From an uncultured archaeon (GTDB lineage: Archaea; Asgardarchaeota; Heimdallarchaeia; Heimdallarchaeales; Heimdallarchaeaceae), in contig CAZPXJ010000004.1 of the NCBI GenBank assembly GCA_964590855.1, positions 27,715 to 51,714 on the forward strand: 24,000 nucleotides of DNA, in the 5' to 3' direction. Position numbers and translations under genes: made by a program. The first letter of the stretch is position 1; each line of letters starts with the position of its first letter. The notes below the pieces were generated by a model. The model ran no database searches. It was not told the DNA's origin and saw nothing but the letters and a program-made list of their open reading frames with translations. Shown in pieces: positions 2,947 through 23,527 of the stretch.

Positions 2947-3513
2947 CTAAATTATCTTCATATCAAATTCTGTAGCTACAAATTCCATTGCTTCTTCGGG
3001 TGAAACATAATGTTTCTTAGGTAGCTTTTGTCTCTTTCTCTGCCTATACTTTACTCGATATCCTGGACGTTCAATTTTTACTATAACATTGAAACCAATT
3101 GTACCTAACATTGGATCAAATGGAGCATCTTCAATATCTACATGCTCAGTGATACCAAAAGCAAAGTTTCCTTGTTGGTCAAAAGAACTTGATTTGACTT
3201 CATAATCGTAAGCATAGAGTAGTCTTCGAAGTAAAACTGGTGCTTCTTCTCCCCTCAGTGTTACTACTGCAGCGATTGGTTCTCCTTTACGAATTCCAAA
3301 ACCTCTAATTGATTCTTTTGCTGGTCGATCTACTGGTTCTCTCTTTGTTATTTGTCTGAGTATTTCTTTTGCTCTTTCAAATCTAGGACCAGATTCACCA
3401 ACACTAGTATTAATGATTAAGGCTTTTAATCGAGGTTTTTTCATTGGATGTTTTTCCCATTCTTCAGTAAATTTGGGAATGAATGCTTCTTGTTCTATAA
3501 CTTCTTCTGTCAT
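2947..3513 (-). CDS. rpl5: 50S ribosomal protein uL5
   Basis: The 188-aa product contains ...MKKPRLKALIINTSVGESGPRFERAKEILRQITKREPV..., which is uL5-like. A GGTGA Shine-Dalgarno site lies upstream and the cluster position fits. Confidence 0.9.
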   Translation of the reverse strand: MTEEVIEQEAFIPKFTEEWEKHPMKKPRLKALIINTSVGESGPRFERAKEILRQITKREPVDRPAKESIRGFGIRKGEPIAAVVTLRGEEAPVLLRRLLYAYDYEVKSSSFDQQGNFAFGITEHVDIEDAPFDPMLGTIGFNVIVKIERPGYRVKYRQRKRQKLPKKHYVSPEEAMEFVATEFDMKII

Positions 3514-5804: not shown

Positions 5805-5947
5805 TATTTTTAGAAGACTGTTCTCTAGTTAATATTCTTTGACGATTATCTTAAAAAGGTCTTACGCTTTGAGTATAACTAGAGGTATACAAATTGGGTG
5901 ATAAATCACTCAATTTTTAAATTGGACATATCGACCTATACAAAAAG

Positions 5948-8425
5948 GTGACATCGGTGAGTGATTTCGTTCCAAAACTAACTGAAGAAACATATGATCC
6001 TCAGAAGCAAGATCTGATGCTGTTCAATAAGTGGCAAGATGAAAAATTATTTTCCTTTGACAAGTCATCAGGAAAAAAAATCTTTAGTATCGATACTCCT
6101 CCTCCTTATGCAAATGCTCCTTGGCACATGGGTGGAGCTATACACTACAGTCAGATTGATATGATTGCACGTTACAAACGCATGGCAGGTTTTGAAATTC
6201 TATTCCCAATGTGTTTGGATCGTAATGGGCTCCCTATCGAAGTTCAAGCTGAGAGAAAGTTCAAAATTTCAATGCATAATGTTCCTAGAGAAGAATTTCT
6301 CAGTATGTGTAAACAAATCTTGGATGAAGTAGGGGACATGATTTTAGATGTTTGTAAAAGATTGGGTTTTAGTAACAATTCACTTGAGTGGGATGAAATC
6401 TACAAAACTGATGAAGAGCAATATAGAACCTTAACTCAATCTACTTTCATCCAGCTGTTCAAAGAAGAACAAATTTATGAGGACAATCGACCAAATAATT
6501 ATTGTACTCGATGTAAAACAACTATTGCTGATAACGAAATAGATTACAAAGCAGGCTCTCACATGCTTTATGATATTAGATTCAAGGTGAAAGAAACTGA
6601 TGAAGATCTTATCATATCTACTTCTAGACCTGAATTAATTCCTGCCATAGGAGTAGTAATTTACAATCCAAAGGATGAACGATATCAACATCTTAAAGGA
6701 AAAACTGCAATTACTCCAATGTTTGAAGATGAAGTACCAATAATACCTCATCATTATGCAAAGATGGAATTTGGTACTGGTATAATGATGGTATGTGCGT
6801 ATGGTGATTCAAATGATGTTCAAATTTTCAGAGAATTACATCTTAACCCTAAAACAATAATTGATACAAATGGTCGAATAATTGATGCAGTTACAGAATA
6901 TGCAGGTTTGAAAGTAAAGGAAGCTAAGAAACAAATAGCAGAAAGACTCGAACAAGAGGGACACATCGTAGAAAAAGTGGATGCACCCCATAACTTTCCA
7001 ATATGCTCTCGCTGTAAAACCTCAGTAGAATTCTTGGCAATGCCTGAATATTATTTAAAACAGGTAGAATACCTACCTAAACTTCATGAATATGCACAAG
7101 AAATGCTATTCCTTCCACCTTTCATGAGAAACGTATGGGTCGATTGGTTAAATACCGTATCTATAGATTGGCCAATAAGTAGAAGACGTTATTATGGAAC
7201 TGAAGTTCCAGTATGGTACTGTAAAGAGTGTAATCACCCCAATCTTCCTGAACCAGGTAGGTACTATCAACCTTGGAAGGACGATCCTCCATTTGACACG
7301 TGTCAGAAGTGTGGTAAAAGTGAGGGATTTGAAGGTGACTTAAGAACATTTGATACATGGATGGATTCTTCCCTTAGTGAAATATACACTATTATGTATC
7401 CTCACAATAAAAAGGATGAAGAATTATTCAAAAAATTAATTTCACGCCCATACATTTGTGATCTGAGGCCATCAGCAAAAGACATAGTACGAACTTGGCT
7501 TCATTATACTATGCTAAGGGCATTACAATTATACAAAAAACCTGCTTTCAAATATGCTTGGATATCTGGTTTTGTAGTAGATAAGAAAGGTGAAAAATTC
7601 TCAAAAAGTGCTGGTTCTAACATAAAACCAGAAGACATGATTGAAAAATATGGTGGAGATGCTGTAAGGTTCTATGGTGCAGCTGAAGCTAGTCATGGAT
7701 CAGATATCCGCTTTAATCAACAACGACTTCAAGGGATTTCTAAATTAATAAACAAGCTCTACAATATAGCAAAATTCCTCAGCCGTTTTCCCATAATTGA
7801 AGATAAAACGCAAATATCTCTTCAACCAGCTGATGAATGGATTCTTTCTGAGTTAGTTAAAGTAATTGATGAAGCTAGAGCTGGTTATGAAATATTTGAT
7901 TTCCAAGTTCCTGCAAAAACTCTTAGAAACTTCACTTGGGAAACTTTTGCTTCCCATTATATGGAATTAGTAAAAGGACGTGCTTACAACAGAAATAAAG
8001 TTTATGGAGATAAAGAACAGAAAGCTGCTTGGTACACCCTTCATAAAGTAATGAAAGAGATAACAAAAGCATTTGCCCCAATTATTCCATTTGTAACGGA
8101 CTTGATCTATAGAGGAATATATGATAAAACCGTACATCTTGAGAAGTTTCCTGAAGGAAAGGAGATTATCGATAAGCAACAATATCTTGAAATTACTTCA
8201 ACTCTTCTTGAACTAAATTCCGCTATTTGGAAATATAAAAAGAGTAAACAATTACCTTTAAACACCCCAATCAAGCAGATATTGCTTCCTGAATCATTAG
8301 CTCCTTTAACAGACGACTTACAATCAATGCACGCAATAGAGATTTTAGTTAAGAAAGATATTGAAATCGAAAGTGGCGAGATTATACCTATTAATGAAAC
8401 AGAAAACATCATTATTAAGATATAG
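5948..8425 (+). CDS. valS: Class Ia aminoacyl-tRNA synthetase, most likely valyl-tRNA synthetase
   Basis: The 825-aa product starts at GTG. It has a HIGH-region PPPYANAPWHMGG, a KMSKS-region KFSKSAG, a CP1/editing-type STSRPELIPAIGV block, and CxxC knuckles (CTRCKT, CSRCKT, CKEC...CQKC). An FPMCLDRNGLPIE block resembles the archaeal Val/Ile type. The length fits ValRS rather than IleRS or LeuRS. Confidence 0.65.
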   Translation: MTSVSDFVPKLTEETYDPQKQDLMLFNKWQDEKLFSFDKSSGKKIFSIDTPPPYANAPWHMGGAIHYSQIDMIARYKRMAGFEILFPMCLDRNGLPIEVQAERKFKISMHNVPREEFLSMCKQILDEVGDMILDVCKRLGFSNNSLEWDEIYKTDEEQYRTLTQSTFIQLFKEEQIYEDNRPNNYCTRCKTTIADNEIDYKAGSHMLYDIRFKVKETDEDLIISTSRPELIPAIGVVIYNPKDERYQHLKGKTAITPMFEDEVPIIPHHYAKMEFGTGIMMVCAYGDSNDVQIFRELHLNPKTIIDTNGRIIDAVTEYAGLKVKEAKKQIAERLEQEGHIVEKVDAPHNFPICSRCKTSVEFLAMPEYYLKQVEYLPKLHEYAQEMLFLPPFMRNVWVDWLNTVSIDWPISRRRYYGTEVPVWYCKECNHPNLPEPGRYYQPWKDDPPFDTCQKCGKSEGFEGDLRTFDTWMDSSLSEIYTIMYPHNKKDEELFKKLISRPYICDLRPSAKDIVRTWLHYTMLRALQLYKKPAFKYAWISGFVVDKKGEKFSKSAGSNIKPEDMIEKYGGDAVRFYGAAEASHGSDIRFNQQRLQGISKLINKLYNIAKFLSRFPIIEDKTQISLQPADEWILSELVKVIDEARAGYEIFDFQVPAKTLRNFTWETFASHYMELVKGRAYNRNKVYGDKEQKAAWYTLHKVMKEITKAFAPIIPFVTDLIYRGIYDKTVHLEKFPEGKEIIDKQQYLEITSTLLELNSAIWKYKKSKQLPLNTPIKQILLPESLAPLTDDLQSMHAIEILVKKDIEIESGEIIPINETENIIIKI

Positions 8426-8435
8426 TCAAAATAAC

Positions 8436-8454
8436 TTTTCCTCTTTTCCTTTTT
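8436..8454 (+). terminator. T-rich tract, terminator candidate after the synthetase gene
   Basis: TTTTCCTCTTTTCCTTTTT begins 11 nt after the TAG stop. Archaeal terminators are oligo-T tracts. Confidence 0.4.
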
Positions 8455-9073: not shown

Positions 9074-9077
9074 TAAT

Positions 9078-10091
9078 ATGCCTACTACAAAAGATTACTT
9101 AATTAAAAAATATCAAAGAAATGCTATAGATGAATATCTAGCAAAAGAACTAAAAAATGCAGAATACGGGGGAGTGGAATTACGACGAACACCACTTGGT
9201 GATCGTGTTATACTTCGAGTCGGGAGAGTGGGTTTAGCTATAGGTGGAAGAGGCAGAAATATTCACAGAATTACTGAAGCCTTACGTGAAAGCTATGGTC
9301 TCGACAATCCACAAATTGAGGTAACTGAAGTAGAAAACCCTGAAATTGATGCAAGAATTATGGCTTTTAGATTAGCTTCTTCTTTAGAACGAGGACGTCA
9401 TTTTAGAAGAAGTGCTCATGGTATTATCAGGCGTATTATAGCTAGTGGAGCTAAAGGTGTAGAAATTAAAATCAGCGGAAAAATAACTAGTCAAAGAGCA
9501 AGAGTAGAAACATTCAGAGCTGGATTTGTTGCAAAAGCAGGAGATCCTGCAGACACTTACGTAGATTTAGGTCAAGCTCAAGCTCTTATTCGAAGAGGAT
9601 TATTAGGGGTTCGAGTTAAGATAATGCGTGGCGATGCTATTCTTCCTGATGATATCTCAATCGAAGCAGAACCAACATCAACATCTATGATAGTTGATAC
9701 TGGTGCAGAAGAACCAGAAATCATAGAAGAAATTAGTGAAGAAGTTCTTGAAGAATTGGAAGAATATCCAGATATTGAAGAAGAATTAGACGAAATAGCA
9801 GAAGAGATTACCAAAGAAACCAAACCAAAAGTCAAAGCAAAGACTAAAGCTGAAGATGAACTGAAAGAACTAGATGAAGTTGATAAAGCAGCAAAAGCTA
9901 AACCAAAAGCTAAAGAAAAGAAAGCAGAGAAGAAAGAAGAAAAGGTAACGGAAGAAGTAAAAGAGACCAAAACCAAAGCTGCAAAAACAACTAAAACTAC
10001 TAAGGCTTCCAAAGAAGATAAGAAAGAGGATAAAAAAGAAGAAGCCAAAGAAACTAAATCAAAAGCAAAAGCCAAAGCAAAAGAGGAGTAA
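9078..10091 (+). CDS. rps3: 30S ribosomal protein uS3 with a C-terminal E-rich then K/A/E/T-rich extension of about 140 aa
   Basis: The N-terminal ~195 aa carries the KH domain and the uS3 C-domain (LGDRVILRVGRVGLAIGGRGRNIHRITEAL...RRGLLGVRVKIM). It continues in frame into EEPEIIEEISEEVLEELEE...KAKTKAEDELKE...KSKAKAKAKEE. Confidence 0.9.
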   Translation: MPTTKDYLIKKYQRNAIDEYLAKELKNAEYGGVELRRTPLGDRVILRVGRVGLAIGGRGRNIHRITEALRESYGLDNPQIEVTEVENPEIDARIMAFRLASSLERGRHFRRSAHGIIRRIIASGAKGVEIKISGKITSQRARVETFRAGFVAKAGDPADTYVDLGQAQALIRRGLLGVRVKIMRGDAILPDDISIEAEPTSTSMIVDTGAEEPEIIEEISEEVLEELEEYPDIEEELDEIAEEITKETKPKVKAKTKAEDELKELDEVDKAAKAKPKAKEKKAEKKEEKVTEEVKETKTKAAKTTKTTKASKEDKKEDKKEEAKETKSKAKAKAKEE

Positions 10092-10101
10092 GGTGTAAAA
10101 A

Positions 10102-10305
10102 ATGGCTATAATCAGAACTAGTGAAATAAGAAAAATGAATAAGGATCAAAGGTTTAGAAAATTGGAAGAATTCAAGAAAAAACTCTTTACAGTTCAATCC
10201 GAATTATCATCAGGGGGTTCCATTGAGAATCCAGGACAAATTCAAGAATATAAGAAAGCTATTGCTCGTCTTCAAACAATTATGACTGAATTAGATGAAC
10301 TTTAA
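10102..10305 (+). CDS. rpl29: 50S ribosomal protein uL29
   Basis: The 67-aa product is MAIIRTSEIRKMNKDQRFRKLEEFKKKLFTVQSELSSGG... An AGGTG Shine-Dalgarno site lies upstream and the cluster position fits. Confidence 0.88.
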   Translation: MAIIRTSEIRKMNKDQRFRKLEEFKKKLFTVQSELSSGGSIENPGQIQEYKKAIARLQTIMTELDEL

Positions 10306-10613: not shown

Positions 10614-10697
10614 ACTATATAATATATTAACACAAATGATTATTAGTTTAAATATTAAAAAAAAGAACATCTTATGCTACAGTGATTGTGTCTTCTC

Positions 10698-13172
10698 ATG
10701 AATCAACCAGAATACCTTAATCATCCATTAATTAAGCAAGATAAAGTAGAAGCTAGATTATATCAGCAAACTCTATTTGCTTCATGTATTAAGGAGAATT
10801 CTCTAGTTGTTTTACCTACAGGTCTTGGGAAAACCATATTATTTCTAATGATCACAGCACACCGTTTAGAGAAATTTCCTGAAGGAAAAATCGTATTTTG
10901 TGCTCCTACTAAACCTTTAATGGATCAACATGAGCGAACAATGAAAGAGTCATTGAACATTAATCCTGAAAGTATAGTTCAAGTTTCAGGTCAAATTGAT
11001 CCAAAGAAGAGAAAAGAAATATGGGATGGCGGTCAAGTATTTGTTTGTACCCCCCAAACTATTCAAAATGACATAATTCAAAGACGAATAAAACTTGAAG
11101 AAATCGTCTTTATGTGCCTTGATGAAGCACACAAAGCAGTAGGTGACCACAGTTATGTTTTCATTGCTGATCAGTATCACAAAAAAGCTCAAAATCCTCT
11201 TTTACTAGGTTTAACTGCAAGTCCGGGATCAAAAATTGAACGTATTGACGACGTTCAGAATAATCTCCATATCACCAATGTAGAAATGAGAGATGAAAGT
11301 TCCAACGATGTTAAACAATACATTCATGAAATTGAAGAGAACTGGGAGATAATCCCTCTTGCTGAGGAGTTCAGAGTAATAATTGATACTTTAAATAATT
11401 TGTTCAAACTTGTATTAGAAGGTTTGAAGGAATTAGAGATAATCAATTCAGCTCTACCAAGAAACAATCCTAGAAAGGAACTTCTGCAATTAAGAGGAAA
11501 AGTAAATAAAAAATTCAGCGACAGTTCAGAGGAAGATAGATCTGAATTCTTTAGAGCAATGTCCTTAGTTGGTAATTCAATTCGTTTATCTCATGCTATT
11601 GAGCTCATAGAAACCCAAGGAATCCCTTCACTTAGCAAATACCTTGAAGGTCAAATTAATGACATAAAATTTGGGAAAGGAAGTAGAGCCCTTAAGGATT
11701 TGATGTTTTCTGAGGAGATGCGACAAGTCGTTGAAACAGTACAAAAACTTCAAGAAGAAAAAGTAATTCACCCTAAAATTGAGAGGCTTAGAGAACTTAT
11801 TTCTGAAGAACTAAAAAACAACCCAAATAACAGAATTCTAGTTTTTGCACATTTTAGAGTAACAGCTAAAATGATCAGTGATGAACTTAACAAGGAAAAT
11901 ATTGTAAAAAGTCATTGGTTTGTTGGTCAAGCGACCAGCAAAGGTGACAAGGGATTATCTCAAAAGGAGCAAATAGAAATTATGCAAGAATTTCGTGATG
12001 GAACCTACAATGTATTAGTTTCAACCAGTGTAGCAGAAGAAGGATTAGACATAGGTGAGTGTGAACTTGTGATTTTCTATGATGCAGTTCCCAGTGCTAT
12101 ACGATTAATACAGAGAAAGGGAAGAACTGGGCGAAGAAAAGAGGGTAAGGTAATTATGCTGATTGCCGAAGGGACTAGGGATGAGGCTTACATGTGGGCC
12201 TCAAAAAGACAGGCTCAAAAAATGAAGAAATTGGTTAGGAAATTAGATCAAACTCTTGATACTAGAAAGCAACCCAAGAAAAAACAACAAAAGGGTATCG
12301 TGGACTTTCTTAAAGAAGCAGAAAAAGTTGTTGAAACAGTTGATTTGAAAGAAGAAACTGAATTAGAAGTAGAAGAAGTAGAAGAATCAAAGGAAATTGA
12401 ATTTGAAAAAGAGGAAGGAAAAATCAAGGTTATTTGCGATAGTAGAGAGAGAAATACTACCGTAATTAAGGAATTGATGAACAAAGGTGTAGAACTTGGT
12501 TTCGAAAGATTAGATTTAGGAGACTATATTTGTTCAGATCAAATAGTCGTTGAAAGAAAGACAGAAGATGATTTTGTGAAATCAATTATCGATAAGAGAC
12601 TATTTACCCAAGCAAAAGCTCTGGTTGAGAGTTGCGCTAAACCAGTAATGATTATTGAAGGTGATCTGAATATTTTTAGTTCATCACTTCACCCTCATGC
12701 AATTACTGGAGCATTAACATCTCTCGCTACAGACTTTAGATTGCCAATTATACATACAAGAAATCAAAAGGAAACTGCAGAGATTCTATTTTCACTTGCG
12801 AGAAGGGAACAAGAGGAAAGACAGAGGAGAATTAGTATAGGGAAACGAAAAGGGATGGGTCTCAAAATACAGATGGAAGAAACCATTGCTTCACTTCCAC
12901 ATATTGATCATAAGATTTCTAATAGACTGCTGAAGCATTTTGGTTCCATCAAGAATGTAATGACCGCAAATCGAGAGGATTTCTTTGAGGTTAGAGGGAT
13001 AGGTGAAAAAATCGCCAATGACATTATTGATTACATCTATAGCAACTATAATGAAATAGAAACGGGTGAAGAAGCTCGAACTATGAAAGAAGACCTCGAT
13101 TTCTTGAGAAAAGATAAGAAAGACAAAACTTCTAAGAAGTCAACGAACGGAGAGAGTCAACAAGAGAACTAA
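10698..13172 (+). CDS. hef: Hef: SF2 helicase fused to ERCC4/XPF-type nuclease and HhH2
   Basis: Helicase motifs are present: LPTGLGKT, CLDEAHKAV, LTASPGS, QRKGRTGRR. The nuclease region has the GDx(n)ERKx3D signature (CDSRERNT...LGDYICSDQIVVERKTEDDF). The C-terminal HhH is LLKHFGSIKNVMTANREDFFEVRGIGEKIANDI. The first ATG is at 10698, whereas the track starts at a TTG at 10686. Confidence 0.9.
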   Translation: MNQPEYLNHPLIKQDKVEARLYQQTLFASCIKENSLVVLPTGLGKTILFLMITAHRLEKFPEGKIVFCAPTKPLMDQHERTMKESLNINPESIVQVSGQIDPKKRKEIWDGGQVFVCTPQTIQNDIIQRRIKLEEIVFMCLDEAHKAVGDHSYVFIADQYHKKAQNPLLLGLTASPGSKIERIDDVQNNLHITNVEMRDESSNDVKQYIHEIEENWEIIPLAEEFRVIIDTLNNLFKLVLEGLKELEIINSALPRNNPRKELLQLRGKVNKKFSDSSEEDRSEFFRAMSLVGNSIRLSHAIELIETQGIPSLSKYLEGQINDIKFGKGSRALKDLMFSEEMRQVVETVQKLQEEKVIHPKIERLRELISEELKNNPNNRILVFAHFRVTAKMISDELNKENIVKSHWFVGQATSKGDKGLSQKEQIEIMQEFRDGTYNVLVSTSVAEEGLDIGECELVIFYDAVPSAIRLIQRKGRTGRRKEGKVIMLIAEGTRDEAYMWASKRQAQKMKKLVRKLDQTLDTRKQPKKKQQKGIVDFLKEAEKVVETVDLKEETELEVEEVEESKEIEFEKEEGKIKVICDSRERNTTVIKELMNKGVELGFERLDLGDYICSDQIVVERKTEDDFVKSIIDKRLFTQAKALVESCAKPVMIIEGDLNIFSSSLHPHAITGALTSLATDFRLPIIHTRNQKETAEILFSLARREQEERQRRISIGKRKGMGLKIQMEETIASLPHIDHKISNRLLKHFGSIKNVMTANREDFFEVRGIGEKIANDIIDYIYSNYNEIETGEEARTMKEDLDFLRKDKKDKTSKKSTNGESQQEN

Positions 13173-13557
13173 TAGATGAAGATATATCTACTATTTCTTT
13201 TGGATCATTAGTTTCTTTCAATTTTGTATTGAGTTCAGATATTTTACCTAGCATTATTTTTGCTGAATCAACTAGTGCAGGAGGAAGAGAGCTAAAATCA
13301 AAAGAAGATACAGATTTTGGTAAAGAACTAGATGGAGTTTGATTATTCTGTACTACTTGGGATTTCTCATGGGGAAAATCAGAAACTGAATCAACCATGA
13401 CATACTGTTTTTTACAATGGACACATACAACTTTACCATCTTTTTCATACAAAGGTTCAACACAATCAGGGCAAGCTTTGTTAAGCATCTTCCACCCTTT
13501 TAGTAGTAAATCCGCACCTGCTTTGATGGAAGCATCGGAATCGGTTGATTTATTCAT
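13132..13557 (-). CDS. UPF0148 / autoantigen-p27-like zinc-ribbon protein
   Basis: The 141-aa product has an N-terminal ...AGADLLLKGWKMLNKACPDCVEPLYEKDGKVVCVHCKK block. This 'LL.G..ML...CP.C..PLf...G...C..C' module is, as I recall, the one in archaeal UPF0148 proteins. The 3' end overlaps hef by 41 nt. Confidence 0.65.
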   Translation of the reverse strand: MNKSTDSDASIKAGADLLLKGWKMLNKACPDCVEPLYEKDGKVVCVHCKKQYVMVDSVSDFPHEKSQVVQNNQTPSSSLPKSVSSFDFSSLPPALVDSAKIMLGKISELNTKLKETNDPKEIVDISSSISSLVDSLRSLTS

Positions 13558-13671
13558 AAGAGAAATGAGTAAGTTGAGTATAAAATCTTAATTGTCCATT
13601 ATACTCATCTGGCAAATACGTAAGTAATACATCTTATCTTATGTAAAATCAAGTTTGGGAGCTAAAGTATA

Positions 13672-13893
13672 ATGGTTATTCGTATGCCTAAAGAGTCAGA
13701 AAGAACACTAGAATCAATACCCAAAATTGAGATCAACGTAGATAGTAGAAATAAGGTGTTGAGATTTCAAGATATATTAGAAGAAAAACCAAGAGTGAGT
13801 GTAAAAGAAATTGAGGGAATGGATAGATTGATTCGAATGTTGAAAAATGAAAAGAAATCACCCTTCTATGCAGCAAAGGACAATAGCAAGTAA
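13672..13893 (+). CDS. Hypothetical small protein (73 aa)
   Basis: The only support is an ORF with GGGAG about 12 nt upstream. The product is charged and probably helical (…VSVKEIEGMDRLIRMLKNEKK…). I recognise no family. Confidence 0.35.
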   Translation: MVIRMPKESERTLESIPKIEINVDSRNKVLRFQDILEEKPRVSVKEIEGMDRLIRMLKNEKKSPFYAAKDNSK

Positions 13894-13993
13894 ATTCTTA
13901 TCGATATTTCTTAGTAAAAAACAAAAAGCTTGCTATAGATTTTCCAAGTATAGTTATTTTAATCTCTTATTATTTTAGAAATGTAAGAAAACA

Positions 13994-14003
13994 TTTTTAA
14001 AAG
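13994..14003 (+). promoter_or_regulatory. TATA-box candidate for tRNA-Ile
   Basis: TTTTTAAAAG is centred about 34 nt upstream of the mature tRNA 5' end. Confidence 0.4.
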
Positions 14004-14032
14004 TAATAAATTAGGATGAATGCAGTAAGAAT

Positions 14033-14110
14033 GGGGCATTAGCTCAGCTTGGTTAGAGCACTCGGCTGATAACCGGGGGGTCGACAGTTCAAATCTGTTA
14101 TGCCCCACCA
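14033..14110 (+). tRNA. tRNA-Ile (anticodon GAU), CCA encoded
   Basis: I folded the cloverleaf by hand. Acceptor stem GGGGCAT/ATGCCCC. D arm GCTC-AGCTTGGTTA-GAGC. Anticodon arm CTCGG-CTGATAA-CCGGG. Variable loop GGGTC. T arm GACAG-TTCAAAT-CTGTT. Discriminator A followed by CCA. Confidence 0.93.
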
Positions 14111-14138
14111 TTCTCCCAATTTTCTTTTCGTTTATTAT

Positions 14139-14897
14139 TCATAATTGAAATTCTGCTGGATCTGGTTCTACAAAAGTTCTGAAATGTTTTGGCCTATACA
14201 CGTAGGATGCATATATTGGTATTCCTCTCTTAACAGTTTTCCATTTATTTTGAGGTTCGCCTAATCTTAAGTTAGGTATTTCCTCATATTTCTCATTAAA
14301 TTCCCATCTTCCGTCTTCCAATCTTTTGTAGCATGTACCTTTTGTTCTTTCAAATTCCTCTGTAATTTCTTTTGCCTCATCTGCTCTTATCCTAGCTATA
14401 ATTGTTCTCTTATCGCTTGGATTTATTATTGAAACGCCATATACAGGAGGAATTATGATTGCATCAAATTTCTGAGCCCTTATCATGATAACGTCTTTTA
14501 CTTGTTCATGTTTTTCGCCAGGTTGTTGTAATAGAATTTCTGCATATCCATCTACAACTTGGTAGATTTCAGGATAAGTATAACCATTATCTGCTAAGGA
14601 TCTATAATATCCACCAGTACTCTTATAGCTATCACCCAATTTACCAGCTTGAACTATTACAACATCAAACCGGATATCACCCCACAGTTCTTTATCCACT
14701 ATCCGTTTAATTCCCTCATATACTCTAAATACTTCTTCTTCCTCACTCTTACCTTCCCATTCTTGATGACCTAAATTTGATTCTAAGTCTTTCACTTTGT
14801 AAACTAATAGGTTCTCCACACTAATTTCGTTGTTATCATAAATGAGCGCTACTTCATCACTCTCTACAGCCAACCCAAGACTTTCCCTTAAATCCAT
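14139..14897 (-). CDS. Cupin-fold protein related to archaeal cupin-type phosphoglucose isomerase, apparently lacking the metal-binding histidines
   Basis: The 252-aa core is DIRFDVVIVQAGKLGDSYKSTGGYYRSL...PEIYQVVDGYAEILLQ...AIIIPPVYGVSIIN. It aligns, from my memory of Pyrococcus cPGI, with DLNFATTVLYPGKVGKEFFFTKGHFHAK...AEVYVALKGKGGMLLQ...VVYVPPYWAHRTVN. Confidence 0.5.
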   Translation of the reverse strand: MDLRESLGLAVESDEVALIYDNNEISVENLLVYKVKDLESNLGHQEWEGKSEEEEVFRVYEGIKRIVDKELWGDIRFDVVIVQAGKLGDSYKSTGGYYRSLADNGYTYPEIYQVVDGYAEILLQQPGEKHEQVKDVIMIRAQKFDAIIIPPVYGVSIINPSDKRTIIARIRADEAKEITEEFERTKGTCYKRLEDGRWEFNEKYEEIPNLRLGEPQNKWKTVKRGIPIYASYVYRPKHFRTFVEPDPAEFQL

Positions 14898-14921: not shown

Positions 14922-15290
14922 TTACAGACTATAGAAATGATCTTCACCATCTTCGGTTATTTTCCAACTATCCAATGACCCAACTTGGAATTTTTTGAGA
15001 AATTCCTTCTCTGTTAGCTCATCTAAAACTTCCATAATCATTTCATGTTCAGCTTTTTCACCTCTGGGAGAGTATAAATTATTTACTTGAAAGGTTATAT
15101 CAGAGATGTTTAACCCCCTATTCAAAGACACGAAAATATCCAATAAGTCTACTTTGACCTGTTCTTTAGTTACCATACTAATCAACATAATATTATCTAA
15201 ATCTTCTAAAAATTTTTCTCTGAATTTCAAAAAATCGTCTATCCAAAAAGATAATAAGAATTCCCCTTTTGATATCTCAATCAAAATCAT
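14922..15290 (-). CDS. Hypothetical protein, possible C-terminal winged-helix
   Basis: The 122-aa ORF starts at ATG and lies 24 nt upstream of the cupin gene on the same strand. The C-terminal segment MIMEVLDELTEKEFLKKFQVGSLDSWKITEDGEDHF resembles a wHTH recognition-helix/wing segment. The start is uncertain, and an internal Met at 15191 is possible. Confidence 0.4.
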   Translation of the reverse strand: MILIEISKGEFLLSFWIDDFLKFREKFLEDLDNIMLISMVTKEQVKVDLLDIFVSLNRGLNISDITFQVNNLYSPRGEKAEHEMIMEVLDELTEKEFLKKFQVGSLDSWKITEDGEDHFYSL

Positions 15291-15337: not shown

Positions 15338-16606
15338 ATGACACAACAAGAAGAGAAGAAAAGAACATCTGTTGAAAGATATATGTTGAAACACGAAATA
15401 GAGAAACTAGAAGCCAGAAGAAGTTTCAATATGTCTACAAGTTTAATCTCCTTATACATTCCACCAGGTACAAGAATTCCAGATATTACATCACAGCTAA
15501 AAAATGAATATGGTACTGCCACAAATATCAAAGATAAAAGCACAGGTAAGGCAATACAAACTGCCATATCATCAATATTATCTAGGATGAAGAATATCCA
15601 GAATGCTGGTGAAAATGGTTTAGTTATTTTCTGTGGAATAACTCAGAATAACAAAACAGAGTATTTTGCTATTGAACCTCCAGAACCAGTTGGTATTAAG
15701 CTATATCGTTGTGATCATATTTTCCTTGTTGACCACTTAAAGGAGATTTTAGAAACCAAAAAACGTTATGGATTAGTAATTGTAGCAAGGGGGGGTTCTA
15801 CAATTGCATCTGTTCAAGGCACAAAAGTTGACATCCACTGGGATGAAGATTCACATGTTCCAGGGAAACATAGAATGGGTGGTCAATCAGCTGCACGTTT
15901 TCAAAGAGCTACAGATGAAGCAGCAAAGGCATGGTACGCTAAAACGGCTATCAAGATGAACGAAATATACTTGGAAAATAATCCTGTCGAAGCTATAATT
16001 GTAGGTGGTCCTGCTCTTTCCAGATCAAGATTTTTGGACAATAAAGAAGTTGACTTTCGTTTGCAAGATAAGGTCATTGGAGTATACGATGTTGGATATG
16101 AAGGATTACAAGGTATTAGGGAATTGTTAGAAAAAGCAGAAGATAAATTAGGAGATTTTGAGATTATAAGTGAAAAGAAATTGATGCAGAGTTTTATGGA
16201 ACATTTGGGAAAAGACTCAGGATTAGCTACTTATGGAGAAAAATTCGTTAGAGAAGCTTTAGAAAAAGGTGCTGTTGAAACTTTACTTGTTAGTGAAGAC
16301 GTTGACCGCATTAGACTTGAAATTAAGTGTGACAACTGTGATTATACAACTGAAGAATCCGTCAAAGCAACAAACTACAATGAGTTTATTAAGAATCTTT
16401 CAGAAAGAAATTGTCCCGAATGCAGTAATTCTAGAATGTATATTGAGAGTGAAATGGATTTGATTACTGAATTAAACGAACTTGCAGAAAAATCCGATAC
16501 TACTCTTGAAGTAATATCATCAGACCATGATGATGGAGCTATGCTCTATAATACATTTGGAGGAATCGCAGCAATTTTGCGTTACAAGTTTTATGATGGG
16601 TATTAG
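15338..16606 (+). CDS. prf1: Peptide chain release factor aRF1
   Basis: The product has LISLYIPPGTRIPDITSQLKNEYGTATNIKDKSTGKAIQ (the NIKS-loop region), YRCDHIF (YxCxxxF) and HRMGGQSAARFQR (GGQ). The C-domain carries a CxxC...CxxC mini-insert. The ATG at 15338 is preceded by GAGGAG, and the track's upstream extension overlaps the divergent gene. Confidence 0.92.
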   Translation: MTQQEEKKRTSVERYMLKHEIEKLEARRSFNMSTSLISLYIPPGTRIPDITSQLKNEYGTATNIKDKSTGKAIQTAISSILSRMKNIQNAGENGLVIFCGITQNNKTEYFAIEPPEPVGIKLYRCDHIFLVDHLKEILETKKRYGLVIVARGGSTIASVQGTKVDIHWDEDSHVPGKHRMGGQSAARFQRATDEAAKAWYAKTAIKMNEIYLENNPVEAIIVGGPALSRSRFLDNKEVDFRLQDKVIGVYDVGYEGLQGIRELLEKAEDKLGDFEIISEKKLMQSFMEHLGKDSGLATYGEKFVREALEKGAVETLLVSEDVDRIRLEIKCDNCDYTTEESVKATNYNEFIKNLSERNCPECSNSRMYIESEMDLITELNELAEKSDTTLEVISSDHDDGAMLYNTFGGIAAILRYKFYDGY

Positions 16607-18763: not shown

Positions 18764-18812
18764 ACTCATAAATCCATCAGAAGAACCAACTTTAAGATAA
18801 GAATTACTTAGT

Positions 18813-18867
18813 GGAGCTAGTCCAAAAGCATTTTTTGGCGAAAGAATGCAATCAAGAAACTAGCTCC
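18813..18867. repeat. Nested inverted repeat / stem-loop between aspS and the ORFan cassette
   Basis: The outer perfect 9-bp arms are GGAGCTAGT (18813-18821) and ACTAGCTCC (18859-18867). They enclose an inner hairpin GCATTTTTT-GGCG-AAAGAATGC of 9 pairs including one G-U. A T6 run lies in the inner stem. Confidence 0.6.
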
Positions 18868-18986
18868 AAGAAAGAATAAGGTTGATTTTGTAAAATAATC
18901 TTTCTGTAAAGGAAGGAAGTTTTACTTTCACTAGACTAGTCTATTCTTGCCACGCAAGGCTTTTATTCACAGAAAACCATGTTTGC

Positions 18987-19547
18987 ATGGCGAAAGTTAT
19001 GCAGTCGAAAAAGGTAAAAGTAGACTTACAAGTAAACACCAAGGGAGAGGAAAAGGTTAACAGAATCATCTGGTGTTCAAGAGGAGAACATTGGAATAAA
19101 AGCAACTGGAAAAGAATAGACAAACCATGGACAAGAATAAAAGACGATTCTCTAAAGGAACATTTACTAAACCAACTATGGGAAGAAGTGATGGATTTAG
19201 GGAGAAGGAAAGAACCAGCATCACTAGGATATGCACACAGGTTAGAGAATTGGGAAATAGTTTCTATCATTGGGACAATGACATTTTTCCAATTGAATGA
19301 GTATCATATAGAGCAAACCAAGTTCGACTTATTTTATGCAAGATACAGAGTATTCGATTGGATAGCAACAAATCTACATGGAAGGATGGAAGGATATCCA
19401 GAAGAAGATGAAGGAGAGAGAATAAGGGCAACATGGGTAATGTGTAAATTCGCAGAAATCTACCTAAATCTGGAAGGAGATGTAAAAGCTTTCTCGGAAT
19501 ATCTGAGGTTATGGGACTTAGAGCCAGAATATGAGGAGAGAGAGTAA
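18987..19547 (+). CDS. Hypothetical W-rich protein (ORFan A), first gene of the purine-skewed cassette
   Basis: The 186-aa ORF is followed 1 nt later by the next gene (TAAAATG). I recognise no family. A TATA-like TTTTATT at 18961-18967 lies about 23 nt upstream of the ATG, so a leaderless transcript is possible. Confidence 0.55.
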   Translation: MAKVMQSKKVKVDLQVNTKGEEKVNRIIWCSRGEHWNKSNWKRIDKPWTRIKDDSLKEHLLNQLWEEVMDLGRRKEPASLGYAHRLENWEIVSIIGTMTFFQLNEYHIEQTKFDLFYARYRVFDWIATNLHGRMEGYPEEDEGERIRATWVMCKFAEIYLNLEGDVKAFSEYLRLWDLEPEYEERE

Positions 19548-19548
19548 A

Positions 19549-20205
19549 ATGAGTTCTGAGAACAAGGAAATCAAACAATGTCCAGACTACTGTGAAAAAA
19601 TAAAACATGAGCAATGTGACTGTCCATTTTGTTTTGAAAGAGAAGAGAAGGAAGAAAAAGAACCTTCCTTCACTATTTCAATAAAATATAAGGAATTTGT
19701 AGAAGAGTGGTTAAAGGAAGAAAAGATAAACCATACAATGGAAGTAGTTGAAGACTATACAAAGAAACTGGTAGAAGAAACTGGAGAAGAATTACTAAAC
19801 TATTTCTATCATAAGATTAAGGATGTATTCATTTTCGAAATATCGAATATTCACCAGTTAGAACTAATAGATAAGACAATAAGGAAAGCAGAGTGTGGAT
19901 ACTGCTCAAAGATATTGATAGTGGATTGGGATAGTTATTCATACGACCACGTAGAGTGTGGAGATTGTACATCACAAGGGAAGGAAGCATTTGTGTGTAA
20001 TGAGTGTGCAAAAACTAATGCTTACATCTGTCCTGTGTGTAAGAAGAAGGAGAACCTGTTCCCACCACCAGAGATGTGGACAGACCATCCAAACCATTGG
20101 AGCGACTGTGTGACTGAGGAAGACGAAGAAGAAAATCTGGAGGAAAGCACCCGTGGAAAGGAGAGAAGAGAGAAAAGAGGGATAAAACCCTCTTCCTCTT
20201 CTTAA
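19549..20205 (+). CDS. Hypothetical Cys-rich multi-zinc-finger protein (ORFan B)
   Basis: The N-terminal cluster is CPDYCEKIKHEQCDCPFC. The C-terminal module is CGYC-x17-CGDC-x9-CNEC-x7-CPVC, four CxxC pairs. I chose the ATG at 19549 immediately after the ORF A stop, whereas the track start at 19531 overlaps ORF A. Confidence 0.6.
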   Translation: MSSENKEIKQCPDYCEKIKHEQCDCPFCFEREEKEEKEPSFTISIKYKEFVEEWLKEEKINHTMEVVEDYTKKLVEETGEELLNYFYHKIKDVFIFEISNIHQLELIDKTIRKAECGYCSKILIVDWDSYSYDHVECGDCTSQGKEAFVCNECAKTNAYICPVCKKKENLFPPPEMWTDHPNHWSDCVTEEDEEENLEESTRGKERREKRGIKPSSSS

Positions 20206-20221
20206 TCTGGAGGAAGGGAAG

Positions 20222-21433
20222 ATGAAAGAACACACACAGAAAAGGATGGATGAATTCTACAAAGATAAAAAAGAACTGAAGGAGATAGAACAGAAGAAGG
20301 GATTGAAGAAATACAAAGTGATAGACATAAGATTGAAGGGAACAAACAAGACAGAGAAAGTAAATCATGAGGGAAAGGAACATGGAAGGATGCAAGTACT
20401 GAAAGGCAATTGTATAGATCCAGTGAGAGGATGTCCAAGTTATGCTAACCCAGAGAAACCTATGTGTCCATGGGATTGTTACTCGGAAGAAGCAGTAAGG
20501 AGATACAAGATAGATTTTGGCAAACCAATATCAATGAAACTCAAAGAAAGACTGTTAGTAAAAGACATGATAGGAACTCAATCGGATTGGATAAGGATAG
20601 GAGTAGACGGAGCACCATCATGGAATTGGGAATTAACAGTAAGATGTGCAGAGTTAGTAAATCTGGTACAGAAAGTTCCAGTGATAATAACGAGGATGTG
20701 GAGAACAATAACGATGAAGCAGTTACAGAGGCTGATAGATATAGGAACGATAATACATATAACAGTCTCAGCAGCAGACAGAGAAGAGATACTAGAAAGG
20801 AACCTAGAGATAGCTAAGGATATCAACATAATGGGAGGAAAAGTAGTATTGAGAATAGTAACATTTGCTTACAGACCCGGGGACTGCAGAGAGAAAAAAC
20901 AAGAGAAAATGATGTATCAAGAAGAGATACCAGTACTAGAACAACCAGGGAGATTGATGAGGGTAACAGAGAATACTAAGAGGAAAAATTCCCTTTGGGT
21001 TGAAATAGTCCATATAGCTGGAGGTGGTGGTTCTCCAGAAAGATACTACTTGAGAGAATTACATAAAAATCTCCCAAAAAACAAGGTTAGAACATTTTAT
21101 AGTAGAAACAAGGAAATGATGTGTTCCTGTTCATCATGTGCAAAAATCAAAGAAAAAAATGGGATCAGAATTAAATCTGTTGCAGATATCAGTAGATTCT
21201 TCGATGAGATTGACTATATGTATGATTCAAGAGAACATTTCGTGAACTCACACTCAGATGAAAGAGAACAAATACAAAAAGAGAATGTAGATATGATAGT
21301 TAAGAGATTAGAAGCAGAAGAAAGAAATGCAGAGAGATTGAATATAGCACACAACTTGGGAGAGGATATAAGTTTCTACAAGAAATGGAGAGCTAGTTTA
21401 GAGGGACTATCTCACAAAAGAAAAGAAAGTTGA
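20222..21433 (+). CDS. Hypothetical protein with Cys cluster C-x10-C-x3-C-Y and an alternating beta/alpha core; possibly radical-SAM-fold / DUF5131-like (ORFan C)
   Basis: The 403-aa ORF has GGAGG 9 nt upstream. It contains IDPVRGCPSYANPEKPMCPWDCYSEEAVRRY. Hydrophobic strand-like segments follow (WIRIGVDG, VPVIITRMW, IIHITVSAADRE, VVLRIVTFAY), separated by helical stretches. A second cluster, CSCSSC, lies near the C-terminus. Confidence 0.6.
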   Translation: MKEHTQKRMDEFYKDKKELKEIEQKKGLKKYKVIDIRLKGTNKTEKVNHEGKEHGRMQVLKGNCIDPVRGCPSYANPEKPMCPWDCYSEEAVRRYKIDFGKPISMKLKERLLVKDMIGTQSDWIRIGVDGAPSWNWELTVRCAELVNLVQKVPVIITRMWRTITMKQLQRLIDIGTIIHITVSAADREEILERNLEIAKDINIMGGKVVLRIVTFAYRPGDCREKKQEKMMYQEEIPVLEQPGRLMRVTENTKRKNSLWVEIVHIAGGGGSPERYYLRELHKNLPKNKVRTFYSRNKEMMCSCSSCAKIKEKNGIRIKSVADISRFFDEIDYMYDSREHFVNSHSDEREQIQKENVDMIVKRLEAEERNAERLNIAHNLGEDISFYKKWRASLEGLSHKRKES

Positions 21434-21442
21434 TTAAGAAAA

Positions 21443-23527
21443 TCATACTGTTCCGTTTCTGTTTCTATGTCTTTTTAGTGTTATGACAATGAACGGTATT
21501 ACAAGTACTAATGAGAAAAAGGAATAGTAGAAATTATTACCTTTCTCTAGTGGGTTCTTCTTTAAAGGATACAGATCATACGAGTTTGCTGAACCATCTA
21601 TACTATAGTTTCCTGTTCCTTGATAATTGTCCCAAAAATTCCCTTCTTCTTCCTCTATCTGGTACCAAGTATTATTGGTACCATCATCCAATGCCTGTAT
21701 ATTTCCATTATTATTATCTATAAATGCATTATGATGAACTATGTTTCTTGTTGACTGATAACCAAGAATAACTGCATAGTTTGAATTTGTCTCAAACCAA
21801 TTATAACTGATTTCACTATCTAAAACCTCGGTGCCCCTGATACCAACAGTATTATCTCTAAAACGGTTCTCATAAATTGTAAAATAATGACTGAATATAA
21901 GAACCACTCCATTTTCATTATCAAATATAGAATTATCTTGAATTCTAACATCAATGGCGGTAGTAGAGTAAATCCCTGCTGAATTATTACCAATATTCGG
22001 ATTAGGATAATGGGATGAGATTACATTGTTTTTTATCAAAATCATACTACCAAAATTCAGATAAACTCCCAATGTATTCCCTGAAAATTCATTGCTTATG
22101 ATGTTACAATGGTCTGAAAAATGAAGCTGCAAACCAAAATGAATGTTATTATGAATTTCATTTTCATTCAAATCAAGATATTCAGATAAGCTTGCGTAAA
22201 TCCCGTACTCATTATTAATAATTTCTGAATTGGTAATAGAACAACCATCGGATTGATCGAATAAAGCTCCATAAGTTGAGATATTGCTTTTACTTGAGGT
22301 TATAGTACAATTATTGCTACCATAAACAAAGAAACCGTAGAGAGTGACATATACATTACAGTTTTGTATTATTGTATAATCACAAAATATGAGCCCTATA
22401 CCCATGCTTGTATCACGAACTGTCATGTTCTGGACGGTTACTTGTAAACATGATACAAGAATCACTTGACCAAAATTCCCTTCAACTATGAAATTTGTAC
22501 CTTTATTTCTAAAAAAACCTAGAAGTTTGTTATTAACAAAATTATCCTCAACTATCCAATTCATGATTTGGGATTTCTCAATTTCTTCAACAGTAAGACC
22601 ACATTTGGTAAAATTATTTCTTGCAATGTAGCATTCATCCGATTTTCTTATATCAAGACCTTTGATGCAATTGTCAACCAAATTACTACTAACATTGATT
22701 TTTGATGAAGAGACTATTTTGATTGCTGCTGCTCCTCTATCAATCTGGTTGTATAGAATGTTACAAGACATTGCATTATCCAAAAATATTCCCACACCAG
22801 ATGAATTTAAGCATAAGTTGCTTAACAAGTCACAGCTCTGCGAATAACTTATACTAGCAAATTGTTCTACATCTGCAATATTGCTTCTTACAACCTTTTG
22901 ATGACTAGAAAAAGCAGAGAACAAAAATGTGCTTGAGTTTGAGCATTGATTAGAATCTATTACATTGTTTGTAGCATCCCGAATAGAGAAACATTCACTG
23001 CTTATGTTTTCAAAACTATTATTCACGAATTGACAATTATCAGTACCCAATCTTGTCATTATTGCAGTTTTAGAATCTGAGAAGAAATTGTCTTCAATTT
23101 GCAAAAAAGTAGAATTTTCTATATATAAGCTGATACCTTGATGAAAATTCATGAATGAGTTATTAGTCAGAATTCCAGTGTTATTGGCAATATTCCTAAG
23201 AAAAACCCCATTTGTACTAGAGTTAAATATACAGTCTTTAATAATGAAGTGACTATTCGTATTCTGGATTCTAATTGCATAAGGGTCATTAGTTGATATC
23301 CATAGGTCTTCTAGTATAAAAGGGTCTGAATATGAACCGTTACCACTAAAACCATATGAAACAAAAGCAGTGTCATTATCAATATAGATAGAATCTGTAA
23401 ATGAAAAAATTTGAGGAGATAGAGTTGCTCTTTTTTCGTGCGGTTGAGCTATTTCACCATTCGAGAAAGGGCTATTTATGATGGAAACCACCAAAATTAT
23501 GCAAAATAATTTGGTAATTCTTTTCAT
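21443..23527 (-). CDS. Secreted/membrane-anchored surface protein with right-handed parallel beta-helix (PbH1/NosD-like) repeats
   Basis: The 694-aa product has an N-terminal signal-like MKRITKLFCIILVVSIINSPFS. Many repeats of about 22 aa have the form I..N.I..N..GI.L..S..N.I..N. The ending NFWDNYQGTGNYSIDGSANSYDLYPL is NosD-like. A C-terminal TM segment FFSLVLVIPFIVITL is followed by KRHRNR. N-x-S/T sequons are numerous. Confidence 0.8.
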   Translation of the reverse strand: MKRITKLFCIILVVSIINSPFSNGEIAQPHEKRATLSPQIFSFTDSIYIDNDTAFVSYGFSGNGSYSDPFILEDLWISTNDPYAIRIQNTNSHFIIKDCIFNSSTNGVFLRNIANNTGILTNNSFMNFHQGISLYIENSTFLQIEDNFFSDSKTAIMTRLGTDNCQFVNNSFENISSECFSIRDATNNVIDSNQCSNSSTFLFSAFSSHQKVVRSNIADVEQFASISYSQSCDLLSNLCLNSSGVGIFLDNAMSCNILYNQIDRGAAAIKIVSSSKINVSSNLVDNCIKGLDIRKSDECYIARNNFTKCGLTVEEIEKSQIMNWIVEDNFVNNKLLGFFRNKGTNFIVEGNFGQVILVSCLQVTVQNMTVRDTSMGIGLIFCDYTIIQNCNVYVTLYGFFVYGSNNCTITSSKSNISTYGALFDQSDGCSITNSEIINNEYGIYASLSEYLDLNENEIHNNIHFGLQLHFSDHCNIISNEFSGNTLGVYLNFGSMILIKNNVISSHYPNPNIGNNSAGIYSTTAIDVRIQDNSIFDNENGVVLIFSHYFTIYENRFRDNTVGIRGTEVLDSEISYNWFETNSNYAVILGYQSTRNIVHHNAFIDNNNGNIQALDDGTNNTWYQIEEEEGNFWDNYQGTGNYSIDGSANSYDLYPLKKNPLEKGNNFYYSFFSLVLVIPFIVITLKRHRNRNGTV

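Follow-up and report, generated by a model that had tools for sequence, protein, structure and literature searches.

What are the three genes that follow aspS in a Heimdall-group Asgard archaeon, are they foreign to the genome that carries them, and what might they do? The locus lies in the 24,000-nt stretch of DNA analysed here (the window), where an original prediction had described three co-directional open reading frames (ORFs) as a compositionally foreign cassette wedged between aspS and a surface-protein gene. With moderate confidence, we read the block between about 18810 and 21433 as a self-contained cassette that was acquired horizontally, stands outside the conserved chromosome backbone, recurs in Heimdallarchaeia, and encodes a radical S-adenosylmethionine (SAM) superfamily protein, which probably acts on DNA. 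Positions without a prefix refer to the window, L numbers denote recovered contigs and P numbers denote cluster members of the ORF3 family; coordinates are collected in Table 1.

The three ORFs and their junctions are exactly where they had been placed, with ORF1 and ORF2 separated by one base (TAA-A-ATG) and ORF2 and ORF3 by 16 nt, TCTGGAGGAAGGGAAG, which contains GGAGG. Scanning metagenomes with aspS yielded ten related contigs (aspS 71-88% identical), all of which keep the upstream order hef-p27-GPI-g122-aRF1-pyrH-aspS, and six of them (L010-L014 and L017; aspS 77-88% identical) reach past aspS. Downstream of aspS in these six, none of ORF1, ORF2, ORF3 and the convergent beta-helix gene was found. 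Each of the six has a tRNA-Leu(UAA) with an intron about 85 bp past aspS; ARAGORN missed this tRNA, which was read from the alignment, and its anticodon stem shows a compensatory change between L010 and L011. Where the contigs are long enough (L011/L017, L012, L013, and L014), the tRNA is followed by a bactofilin-like gene, present as two paralogues in most of them, then by SRP54 and further conserved genes. The comparison of the aspS-downstream interval had been proposed in the original prediction, which saw in the block an accessory module and not housekeeping genes; absence from six of six relatives, together with recurrence elsewhere, bears this out. The right border that it drew is another matter: the spacing of 9 nt from the ORF3 stop to the stop of the convergent gene is correct, but this neighbor, described as host-like and indeed host-like in codon usage, is also missing at the relatives' locus and so is itself part of the variable region.

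Synteny is lost in the window within some 45 nt of the stop codon of aspS and does not resume before the window ends, so that a rearrangement and a simple insertion, the latter of at least 5.2 kb, both fit. Heimdallarchaeial elements integrate next to tRNA genes (PMC8813620). In L014, the 3′ half of the tRNA-Leu is duplicated (11487-11521 and 15115-15148) on either side of a 3.6-kb insert carrying a P-type ATPase gene (12224-14293, minus strand); this att-like duplication, seen only there among the loci compared, marks the aspS/tRNA-Leu site as an integration hot spot. In the window, no trace of the tRNA-Leu was detected, even with five errors per half allowed, nor any tRNA or tmRNA at the block borders. 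Simple tRNA integration was rejected as an explanation of the window insert because no tRNA-Leu fragment is left.

Homologous cassettes were found in unrelated genomic contexts. Contigs L001-L003 (a Heimdallarchaeaceae metagenome-assembled genome (MAG) and a JGI contig) hold one that adjoins leuS and includes counterparts of all three ORFs, so that the genes do co-occur as a neighborhood elsewhere, as had been suspected. A more compact 1.9-kb unit, consisting of a 97-aa gene, a 95-aa gene, and a gene for a 317-aa ORF3 homologue, with both small proteins acidic, occurs in L004, L006, and L008 at 91% nucleotide identity between unrelated flanks, and MAG 18H4_34 contains two copies of it. Presence/absence polymorphism at the aspS locus and copies in unrelated contexts (L001, L004, L006, and L008) were thus both observed. 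The ratio of nonsynonymous to synonymous substitution (dN/dS) against the L001 counterparts is 0.11 for ORF1, 0.14 for the conserved domain of ORF2, and 0.21 for ORF3, and 0.08-0.09 among the enzyme copies of L004, L006, and L008; these values indicate real genes under purifying selection. A more distant setting is provided by L005, a 70-kb Logan contig (SRR31655977_47601) of about 50% G+C, which carries an ORF3 homologue at 50% identity and dozens of small unannotated genes that run in one direction; it also encodes an HNH endonuclease, a topoisomerase-like PHROG, and two DNA methylases, and it resembles a virus or plasmid. Genes of the HEPN, HEPN_AbiV, and SLFN_AlbA_2 families lie near homologous cassettes.

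The answer to the question of foreign composition depends on the measure. All three 60-nt hand counts behind the original claim were exact on recount (49/60 purines and 26/60 G+C at 19381-19440; 39/60 and 23/60 at 20641-20700; 26/60 and 20/60 at 15421-15480), and the stop-free antisense shadow ORFs that it cited are present in the ORF list because pyrimidines are scarce in the sense strand. The G+C content of the block, however, is 0.375 vs 0.347 +/- 0.023 outside, and its raw purine fraction of 0.66 compares with 0.70 in the ribosomal protein S3 gene (9500-10300). The latter gene (9078-10091), encoding 337 aa with a long charged C-terminal extension, has the highest raw purine content in the window and an ordinary silent-site composition. 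Because the S3 gene equals or exceeds the block in raw purine and G+C is barely raised, the raw measures alone do not prove foreignness, and in this respect the claim failed.

The part that stood concerns silent sites. At four-fold degenerate sites, the cassette has A.60, G.16, C.07, and T.17, for a purine fraction of 0.76 (n=224), vs A.39, G.06, C.10, and T.45, for a purine fraction of 0.45 (n=2171), in the 20 other window genes, whose individual values range from 0.34 to 0.55 (cassette vs others, chi-square p=3e-18). Nine of these 20 are ribosomal-protein genes, and they lie inside the host range, so the bias is not expression-linked codon choice. The G+C content of third codon positions is 0.34-0.365 in the cassette genes and 0.17-0.33 elsewhere. 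Silent-site composition thus marks the block as foreign, and the bias, unique in the window, accompanies the cassette: the four-fold purine fraction of the cassettes is 0.76 in the window, 0.79 in L001, and 0.935 in L004, vs 0.45-0.50 in their respective neighbor genes; the bias was not found in L005. That the block consists of ordinary chromosomal genes, their composition dictated by Glu/Lys/Arg-rich proteins, is therefore hard to credit: the matching raw skew of the S3 gene and the barely raised G+C are in keeping with it, but the four-fold-site bias is independent of amino-acid content, and the block is missing from all the related loci while the cassette appears in unrelated contexts.

Other small gene pairs in the L001 and L004 loci reach four-fold purine fractions of 0.90-0.97. 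Such purine-loaded small ORFan genes occupy L001 13454-13708 and 19932-20756 and L004 13198-13983, and homology links them across the loci, 102+170 aa corresponding to 105+155 aa; a Pfam scan of these genes and of the cassette partners gave no match.

The left end of the unit had been misjudged. The block had been taken to start at 18930, with a structured repeat region as its boundary; that region is in fact the conserved left end of the cassette, composed of a hairpin and promoter-like boxes, so that the unit begins near 18810. A stretch of about 190 nt lying upstream of the first gene is conserved between the window, L001, L004, L006, and L008, whose first genes nevertheless differ. The 57-nt hairpin has an outer stem of 10 bp with two covarying pairs and an inner hairpin that is lineage-specific in sequence yet paired. 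Eight of 20 pairs changed on both sides, a count drawn from only three independent lineages, and 91% of the cells are paired vs 26-52% in slid controls, a level reached in 0/500 shuffles; we regard the covariation support for the predicted hairpin as real but modest. Its motif occurs once in the window vs 0 expected. A covariance model detected no further copies in 273 kb of collected loci, Rfam yielded no match to the hairpin other than one spurious miRNA match, and the 60 matches to the hairpin pattern in IMG/VR were all chance. An attC-like or box C/D identity was dropped on inspection by eye, the core motifs being missing. A looser hairpin of like design is located at L001 19781-19838, upstream of a purine-loaded gene pair.

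Between the hairpin and ORF1 lies a series of conserved boxes within which no consensus RNA structure was found, their conservation being at the sequence level. One box is TATA-like and lies about 20-27 nt before the start codon, from which we infer a promoter role; the region would be the cassette's own promoter and operator, and the hairpin would then lie upstream of the likely transcription start. A wider reading, which we advance tentatively as a possibility, is that these loci represent an undescribed class of small mobile cassettes characterized by a conserved hairpin, a shared promoter, silent sites almost free of pyrimidines on the coding strand, and swappable ORFan cargo, one such cargo being a new radical-SAM family of nucleic-acid modifiers with a Cx(n)Cx3C motif. 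The hairpin would act in cis as a site of recombination or replication, or would be a small RNA, and the purine loading would be adaptive, serving movement, expression, or escape from a pyrimidine-directed nuclease.

The product of ORF3 offers the best clue to function. It has seven close homologues (50-65% identity) from Heimdallarchaeaceae/Heimdallarchaeota MAGs, and a profile built from these retrieves 172 clusters at 50% identity, 126 of them with E <=1e-10; no Pfam or NCBIfam model reaches threshold, so this is an uncurated family. The near-invariant residues of the family, D66, G70, C71, C82, C86, R125, G127, P132, W136, Q227, and R244, are all kept in the window copy, and the C71, C82, and C86 columns are 99%, 95%, and 100% Cys in a 79-sequence alignment. 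Most of the family has GC-x(6-10)-GC-Y-x-x-C-Y-A in this region, and six members (P0032, P0041, P0043, P0058, P0085, and P0147) have a canonical G-C-x3-C-x2-C-Y-A, the three cysteines of which align with those of ORF3. Members with the canonical motif match Pfam Radical_SAM across the core with E 1e-4 to 1e-2, below threshold (relatives score 16-23 bits against PF04055, cut-off 29.5), and a profile of this subgroup matches RlmN (E 0.014) and, over the Cys motif only, SPL (4fhc, E 0.15) in the PDB. Family members also weakly match the NCBIfam models rSAM mobile pair A/B, PA0069, and LipS2; NF033668 (PA0069) is matched by 2/79 relatives (E 3e-4) and DUF5131 (PF07505) by 1/79 (E 0.009), with ORF3 unmatched in both cases. 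ORF3 likewise gave no match to PF20903 or SPL structures, nor to any PHROG or PADLOC family, and a PDB sequence search with the 79-member profile returned nothing meaningful.

An AF2 model of ORF3 has alternating strands and helices over residues 60-250, with a predicted local distance difference test score (pLDDT) above 90 in the core. Its best Foldseek matches in the PDB are EpeE (8ai6, E 1e-3), PFL-AE, LipA, BioB, SkfB, and SuiB, and in BFVD, phage Radical_SAM proteins (E 1.4e-4). Where a glycine-rich, GGE-like SAM-binding motif would lie, after the second strand, the family has R-I-G-x-x-G-D-P-S and the window R125-I-G127-V-D-G-A-P132-S, with the Asp shifted by two positions. By radical-SAM profile, motif, and fold matches, ORF3 is predicted to be a divergent radical-SAM-superfamily protein, nearest to the SPL / DUF5131 / mobile-pair neighborhood, and the earlier description of it as a putative Fe-S/barrel enzyme was well founded.

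Fusions and neighbors point to the substrate. Fusion partners within the ORF3 family include an ATP-dependent DNA ligase (in P0100) and, by a weak match, a DNA-methylase-like domain (in P0060). In the clade of the window protein, an MT-A70 methylase follows the ORF3 homologue on the short contig L009; the neighbors are an N6_N4 methylase, Tsp45I, and SPL in L081, an AlkZ-like glycosylase, BglII, and a DNA_alkylation repair protein in L082/L083, and the DNA methylases and HNH endonuclease of L005. From these DNA enzymes, DNA is the suggested substrate, and the reading with the best support is a DNA-directed activity of ORF3, which would either modify DNA or reverse lesions. Of the options that the original prediction had listed (modification system, defence system, or remnant of a virus or integrated element), the choice narrows toward DNA-directed modification or repair, with the rivals retaining weight. 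A separate clade has fusions to TauD and amidohydrolase domains; this distant clade occurs on L080 (a JGI 3300047677 contig) in a cluster that encodes three TauD dioxygenases, an adenosine deaminase, a 2OG-Fe(II) oxygenase, and two radical SAM enzymes, of which one is B12-dependent, and that looks like a small-molecule or nucleoside pathway.

The same neighbors and fusions bear on a protein- or peptide-modifying system, in which ORF3 would be a maturase, with the small proteins encoded beside it, here the Cys-rich ORF2 and ORF1 and in other cassettes the acidic 97- and 95-aa proteins, serving as substrates or scaffolds, as in systems for making ribosomally synthesized peptides that are modified post-translationally (RiPPs). 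We consider this unlikely. The best PDB folds do include the RiPP maturases EpeE, SkfB, and SuiB, small genes that vary between cassettes always precede the enzyme gene, and the C-x3-C-x2-C-x3-C tail of intact homologues could hold an auxiliary cluster. Those fold matches, however, reflect the generic radical SAM core at marginal significance (E ~1e-3), typical precursors are far smaller than ORF1 and ORF2, no match to a SPASM, twitch, or RiPP-recognition family was found, and the enzymes observed next to or fused with the family are DNA enzymes.

Anti-virus defence, with the radical SAM protein making a toxic or chain-terminating nucleotide in the manner of viperin or modifying invader nucleic acid, seems more improbable still. 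The HEPN, HEPN_AbiV, SLFN_AlbA_2, and restriction-modification genes near homologous cassettes speak for it, as does a distribution that is patchy, multi-copy, and strain-specific. PADLOC, however, reported nothing beyond a marginal match of ORF2 to its type II methyltransferase model (E 9.8e-4, 16.7 bits), no viperin similarity was found, and the homologue inside the virus- or plasmid-like L005 fits element-borne counter-defence or DNA modification equally well.

The right end of the block raises the question of integrity. Protein and DNA homology to the other cassettes stops at about nt 21008 (ORF3 residue 262), where all homologues continue with a conserved C-terminal tail ending in C-x3-C-x2-C-x3-C. 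The window tail is mostly helical with low pLDDT, and its four-fold purine fraction is 0.59 vs 0.82 in the core. A frameshift was rejected as the cause, no frame encoding the conserved tail. The original 3′ end of ORF3 was probably lost and the gene then fused to other coding sequence, and with the Cys-rich C-terminus gone, the window copy may be altered or impaired. In the 1.9-kb units, a conserved hairpin, GGAGTGTCA-GTAGT-TGACACTTCTCC, lies over the radical SAM stop codon (L004 10940-10990, L006 10920-10970, and L008 3420-3465); the window has lost this right-end hairpin.

A decaying, non-functional remnant of an integrated virus or plasmid, in which a truncated ORF3 reads into unrelated DNA, is a rival to be taken seriously, though a rather doubtful one. 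It accounts for the replacement of the Cys-rich domain by an unrelated, less purine-loaded tail, for purine loading weaker than in L004 (0.76 vs 0.935), as amelioration predicts, for the L001 75-, 117-, and 119-aa genes missing in the window, and for a block that lacks a mobility gene. Against decay, all three ORFs are intact with dN/dS of 0.11-0.21 vs L001, the near-invariant family residues are all kept, the hairpin and promoter-like region are conserved, and a stop-free tail of 141 codons is improbable by chance (estimate ~1e-5).

ORF1 and ORF2 are lineage-restricted ORFans under purifying selection, so the statement that none of the three genes could be assigned holds for these two and fails for ORF3 with its 172 remote relatives. 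Neither matched a Pfam, PHROG, NCBIfam, or PADLOC family at a meaningful level, and PDB sequence searches with both gave nothing meaningful. Word-indexed homology searches found only the two proteins themselves, a method that also missed the 56%-identical L001 homologue; a metagenome scan with the ORF1 alignment detected no relatives, exact-sequence look-ups of window proteins returned no record, and a single-sequence AF2 model of ORF1 was unusable (pLDDT 41). ORF2 begins with an N-terminal five-Cys cluster (C11-x3-C15-x7-C23-x-C25-x2-C28), which is followed by a helical middle part, the conserved domain with its four CxxC pairs, and an acidic tail, in agreement with its earlier description as a multi-zinc-finger protein. 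From the CxxC spacing, the domain appears to be a zinc ribbon, which might serve in nucleic-acid or partner binding.

The cassette, as we would have it work, combines the conserved 57-nt hairpin and promoter-like region with variable small lineage-specific proteins and a terminal radical-SAM-type enzyme. C71, C82, and C86 of ORF3 would hold a [4Fe-4S] cluster, Cx10Cx3C being an expanded CX3CX2C, and the enzyme would split SAM to yield a 5'-deoxyadenosyl radical. This radical would be used on nucleic acid, most probably DNA, for modification or lesion reversal, like SPL and phage M6 gp53. ORF2 would serve as a zinc-ribbon partner for nucleic-acid binding or targeting, ORF1 would be an accessory subunit, and the advantage would come from DNA protection or repair in conflicts of mobile elements with their hosts.

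Several observations weigh against a mobile, DNA-acting radical-SAM cassette. ORF3 itself matches no curated radical SAM model in Pfam or NCBIfam, its Foldseek matches have marginal E-values (1e-3 to 1e-4), its cysteines are non-canonically spaced, notably with Cx3C in place of Cx2C, the GDPS motif of the family reads GAPS, and the window copy is without the conserved Cys-rich C-terminus. The DNA substrate is argued from a handful of contexts and two fusions, and with the TauD clade placed in a small-molecule-type cluster, the family does not have one uniform function. No function was detectable for ORF1 and ORF2. As to mobility, scans with Pfam, PHROG, NCBIfam, and PADLOC found no integrase or transposase gene in the block, and the cassette borders show no flanking direct repeat, terminal inverted repeat, or target duplication. 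Searches of IMG/VR with the ORF3 alignment, ORF1, ORF2, and P0010 gave no homologue, and no match to ORF3 came from tblastn on GenBank phages or PLSDB plasmids.

Table 1. Features of the cassette, its surroundings, and corresponding loci
Locus	Feature	Position (nt)	Strand	Remark
Window	Extended hairpin	18812-18868	+	TGGAGCTAGT ... ACTAGCTCCA, inner hairpin inside; starts 49 nt past the aspS stop
Window	Promoter-like/operator region	18922-18990	+	Boxes conserved in window, L001, L004, L006, L008
Window	TTACTTTCACT	18922-18932	+	Conserved box
Window	Palindrome TAGACTAGTCTA	18932-18943	+	Conserved box
Window	CTTGCCACGCAAGG	18946-18959	+	Conserved box
Window	TATA-like CTTTTATTC	18960-18968	+	
Window	CCATGTTTGCATGG	18977-18990	+	Overlaps ORF1 ATG
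Window	ORF1	18987-19547	+	186 aa, Trp-rich
Window	ORF2	19549-20205	+	218 aa, Cys-rich
Window	ORF2 four-CxxC domain	19882-20112	+	Residues 112-188; matches stand-alone L001 99-aa gene
Window	ORF3	20222-21433	+	403 aa
Window	ORF3 core	20222-21007	+	Residues 1-262; predicted radical-SAM-superfamily partial-barrel domain
Window	ORF3 C71	20432-20434	+	C71-x10-C82-x3-C86
Window	ORF3 C82	20465-20467	+	
Window	ORF3 C86	20477-20479	+	
Window	ORF3 tail	21008-21433	+	Residues 263-403; helical extension, 141 codons, unlike homologues
Window	NosD/right-handed beta-helix surface protein gene	21443-23527	minus	694 aa, convergent
L001	180-aa gene			Counterpart of ORF1, 56% identity
L001	99-aa gene			Counterpart of ORF2 residues 112-188, 64% identity
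L001	75-aa gene			No window counterpart
L001	117-aa gene			No window counterpart
L001	333-aa gene			Counterpart of ORF3, 65% identity
L001	119-aa gene			No window counterpart
L001	Hairpin copy	8386-8437		Upstream of homologous cassette
L004	Hairpin copy	9094-9145		Upstream of homologous cassette
L006	Hairpin copy	9074-9125		Upstream of homologous cassette
L008	Hairpin copy	1574-1625		Upstream of homologous cassette
L010	tRNA-Leu(UAA)	9265-9389		
L011	tRNA-Leu(UAA)	11399-11526		
L012	tRNA-Leu(UAA)	4595-4714		
L013	tRNA-Leu(UAA)	2959-3079		
L014	tRNA-Leu(UAA)	11400-11521		
L017	tRNA-Leu(UAA)	5875-6002		

The remainder of the window contains a ribosomal-protein operon (L19e, L32e, L6, S8, L5, S4e, L24, L14, and S17, plus S3) and other archaeal housekeeping genes, namely those for a class I tRNA synthetase, a Hef-like helicase/nuclease, a cupin-type GPI, aRF1, and UMP kinase, in addition to aspS. 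A p27-like zinc-ribbon gene (PF06677; 13132-13557, minus strand) overlaps the 3′ end of the Hef-like gene (10686-13172, plus strand) by 41 nt, a convergent overlap that is kept in relatives. In L012, a gene for a 622-aa protein with a Cas12f1-like TNB domain (TnpB/Cas12-like; 10973-12841, minus strand) is inserted between conserved genes past aspS.

Among known systems, the ORF3 family shares with SPL/PA0069 (COG1533) a predicted partial barrel of radical-SAM type, a Tyr-Ala that comes after a Cys motif (C..CYA), an (I/V)G..(T/G)DP(S/Y) motif past the second strand, weak links by profile, and an association with DNA enzymes. It differs in staying below curated thresholds, in Cx10Cx3C rather than CX3CX2C, in its C-terminal domain, and in unrelated cassette partner genes, with nothing pointing to photoproduct repair. 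SPL and DUF5131 are grouped in RadicalSAM.org megacluster 5 (PMC9477430), and the SPL-like radical SAM protein gp53 of phage M6 modifies DNA (PMC8989533). With DUF5131 (phage Gp37/Gp68), the family has in common that these are mobile-element-borne, radical-SAM-like three-Cys proteins with an expanded GC...GC..CYA motif. In contrast to DUF5131, in which the Cys spacing is Cx6Cx2C, ORF3 has Cx10Cx3C, the family yields a single marginal PF07505 match, and a TcmP-like partner is missing. Mobile pair A/B (TIGR04471 / TIGR04470) are uncharacterized radical SAM proteins named for mobile-element cassettes, and their NCBIfam models draw matches from the largest number of family members (4 and 2 of the 79; best E 8e-5); these matches are far under the cut-offs, none comes from ORF3, and the cassette has one radical SAM gene with ORFan partners.

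The tRNA-adjacent elements of Heimdallarchaeia (Wu et al. 2022, PMC8813620) resemble the cassette in that they are strain-specific insertions beside tRNA genes, the window's cassette occupying the aspS/tRNA-Leu hot spot that the relatives define. Those elements, of at least 8 kb, carry integrases, giant proteins, or viral structural genes (PMC8813620), unlike the cassette, which is about 2-2.6 kb and has no mobility gene; neither radical SAM proteins nor purine bias are mentioned for them (PMC8813620). The hairpin, the silent-site purine loading, and movement in the absence of a recognizable mobility gene are potentially new features.

The cassette family itself is marked out across genomic contexts by its hairpin and promoter. 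Asgard archaea, Heimdallarchaeia especially, are the closest known relatives of eukaryotes, and to our knowledge, their mobile elements have barely been charted. The silent-site purine bias, at 76-97% far beyond the host range, could be used as a simple index in genome-wide searches for such cassettes, and its mechanism is a puzzle. The ORF3 family, with its unusual cluster motif and its repeated links to DNA methylases, a ligase, glycosylases, and restriction enzymes, is a candidate for new DNA chemistry. We know of very few radical SAM enzymes that act on DNA, and if this enzyme proves to be DNA-modifying, it would be an addition to that short list.

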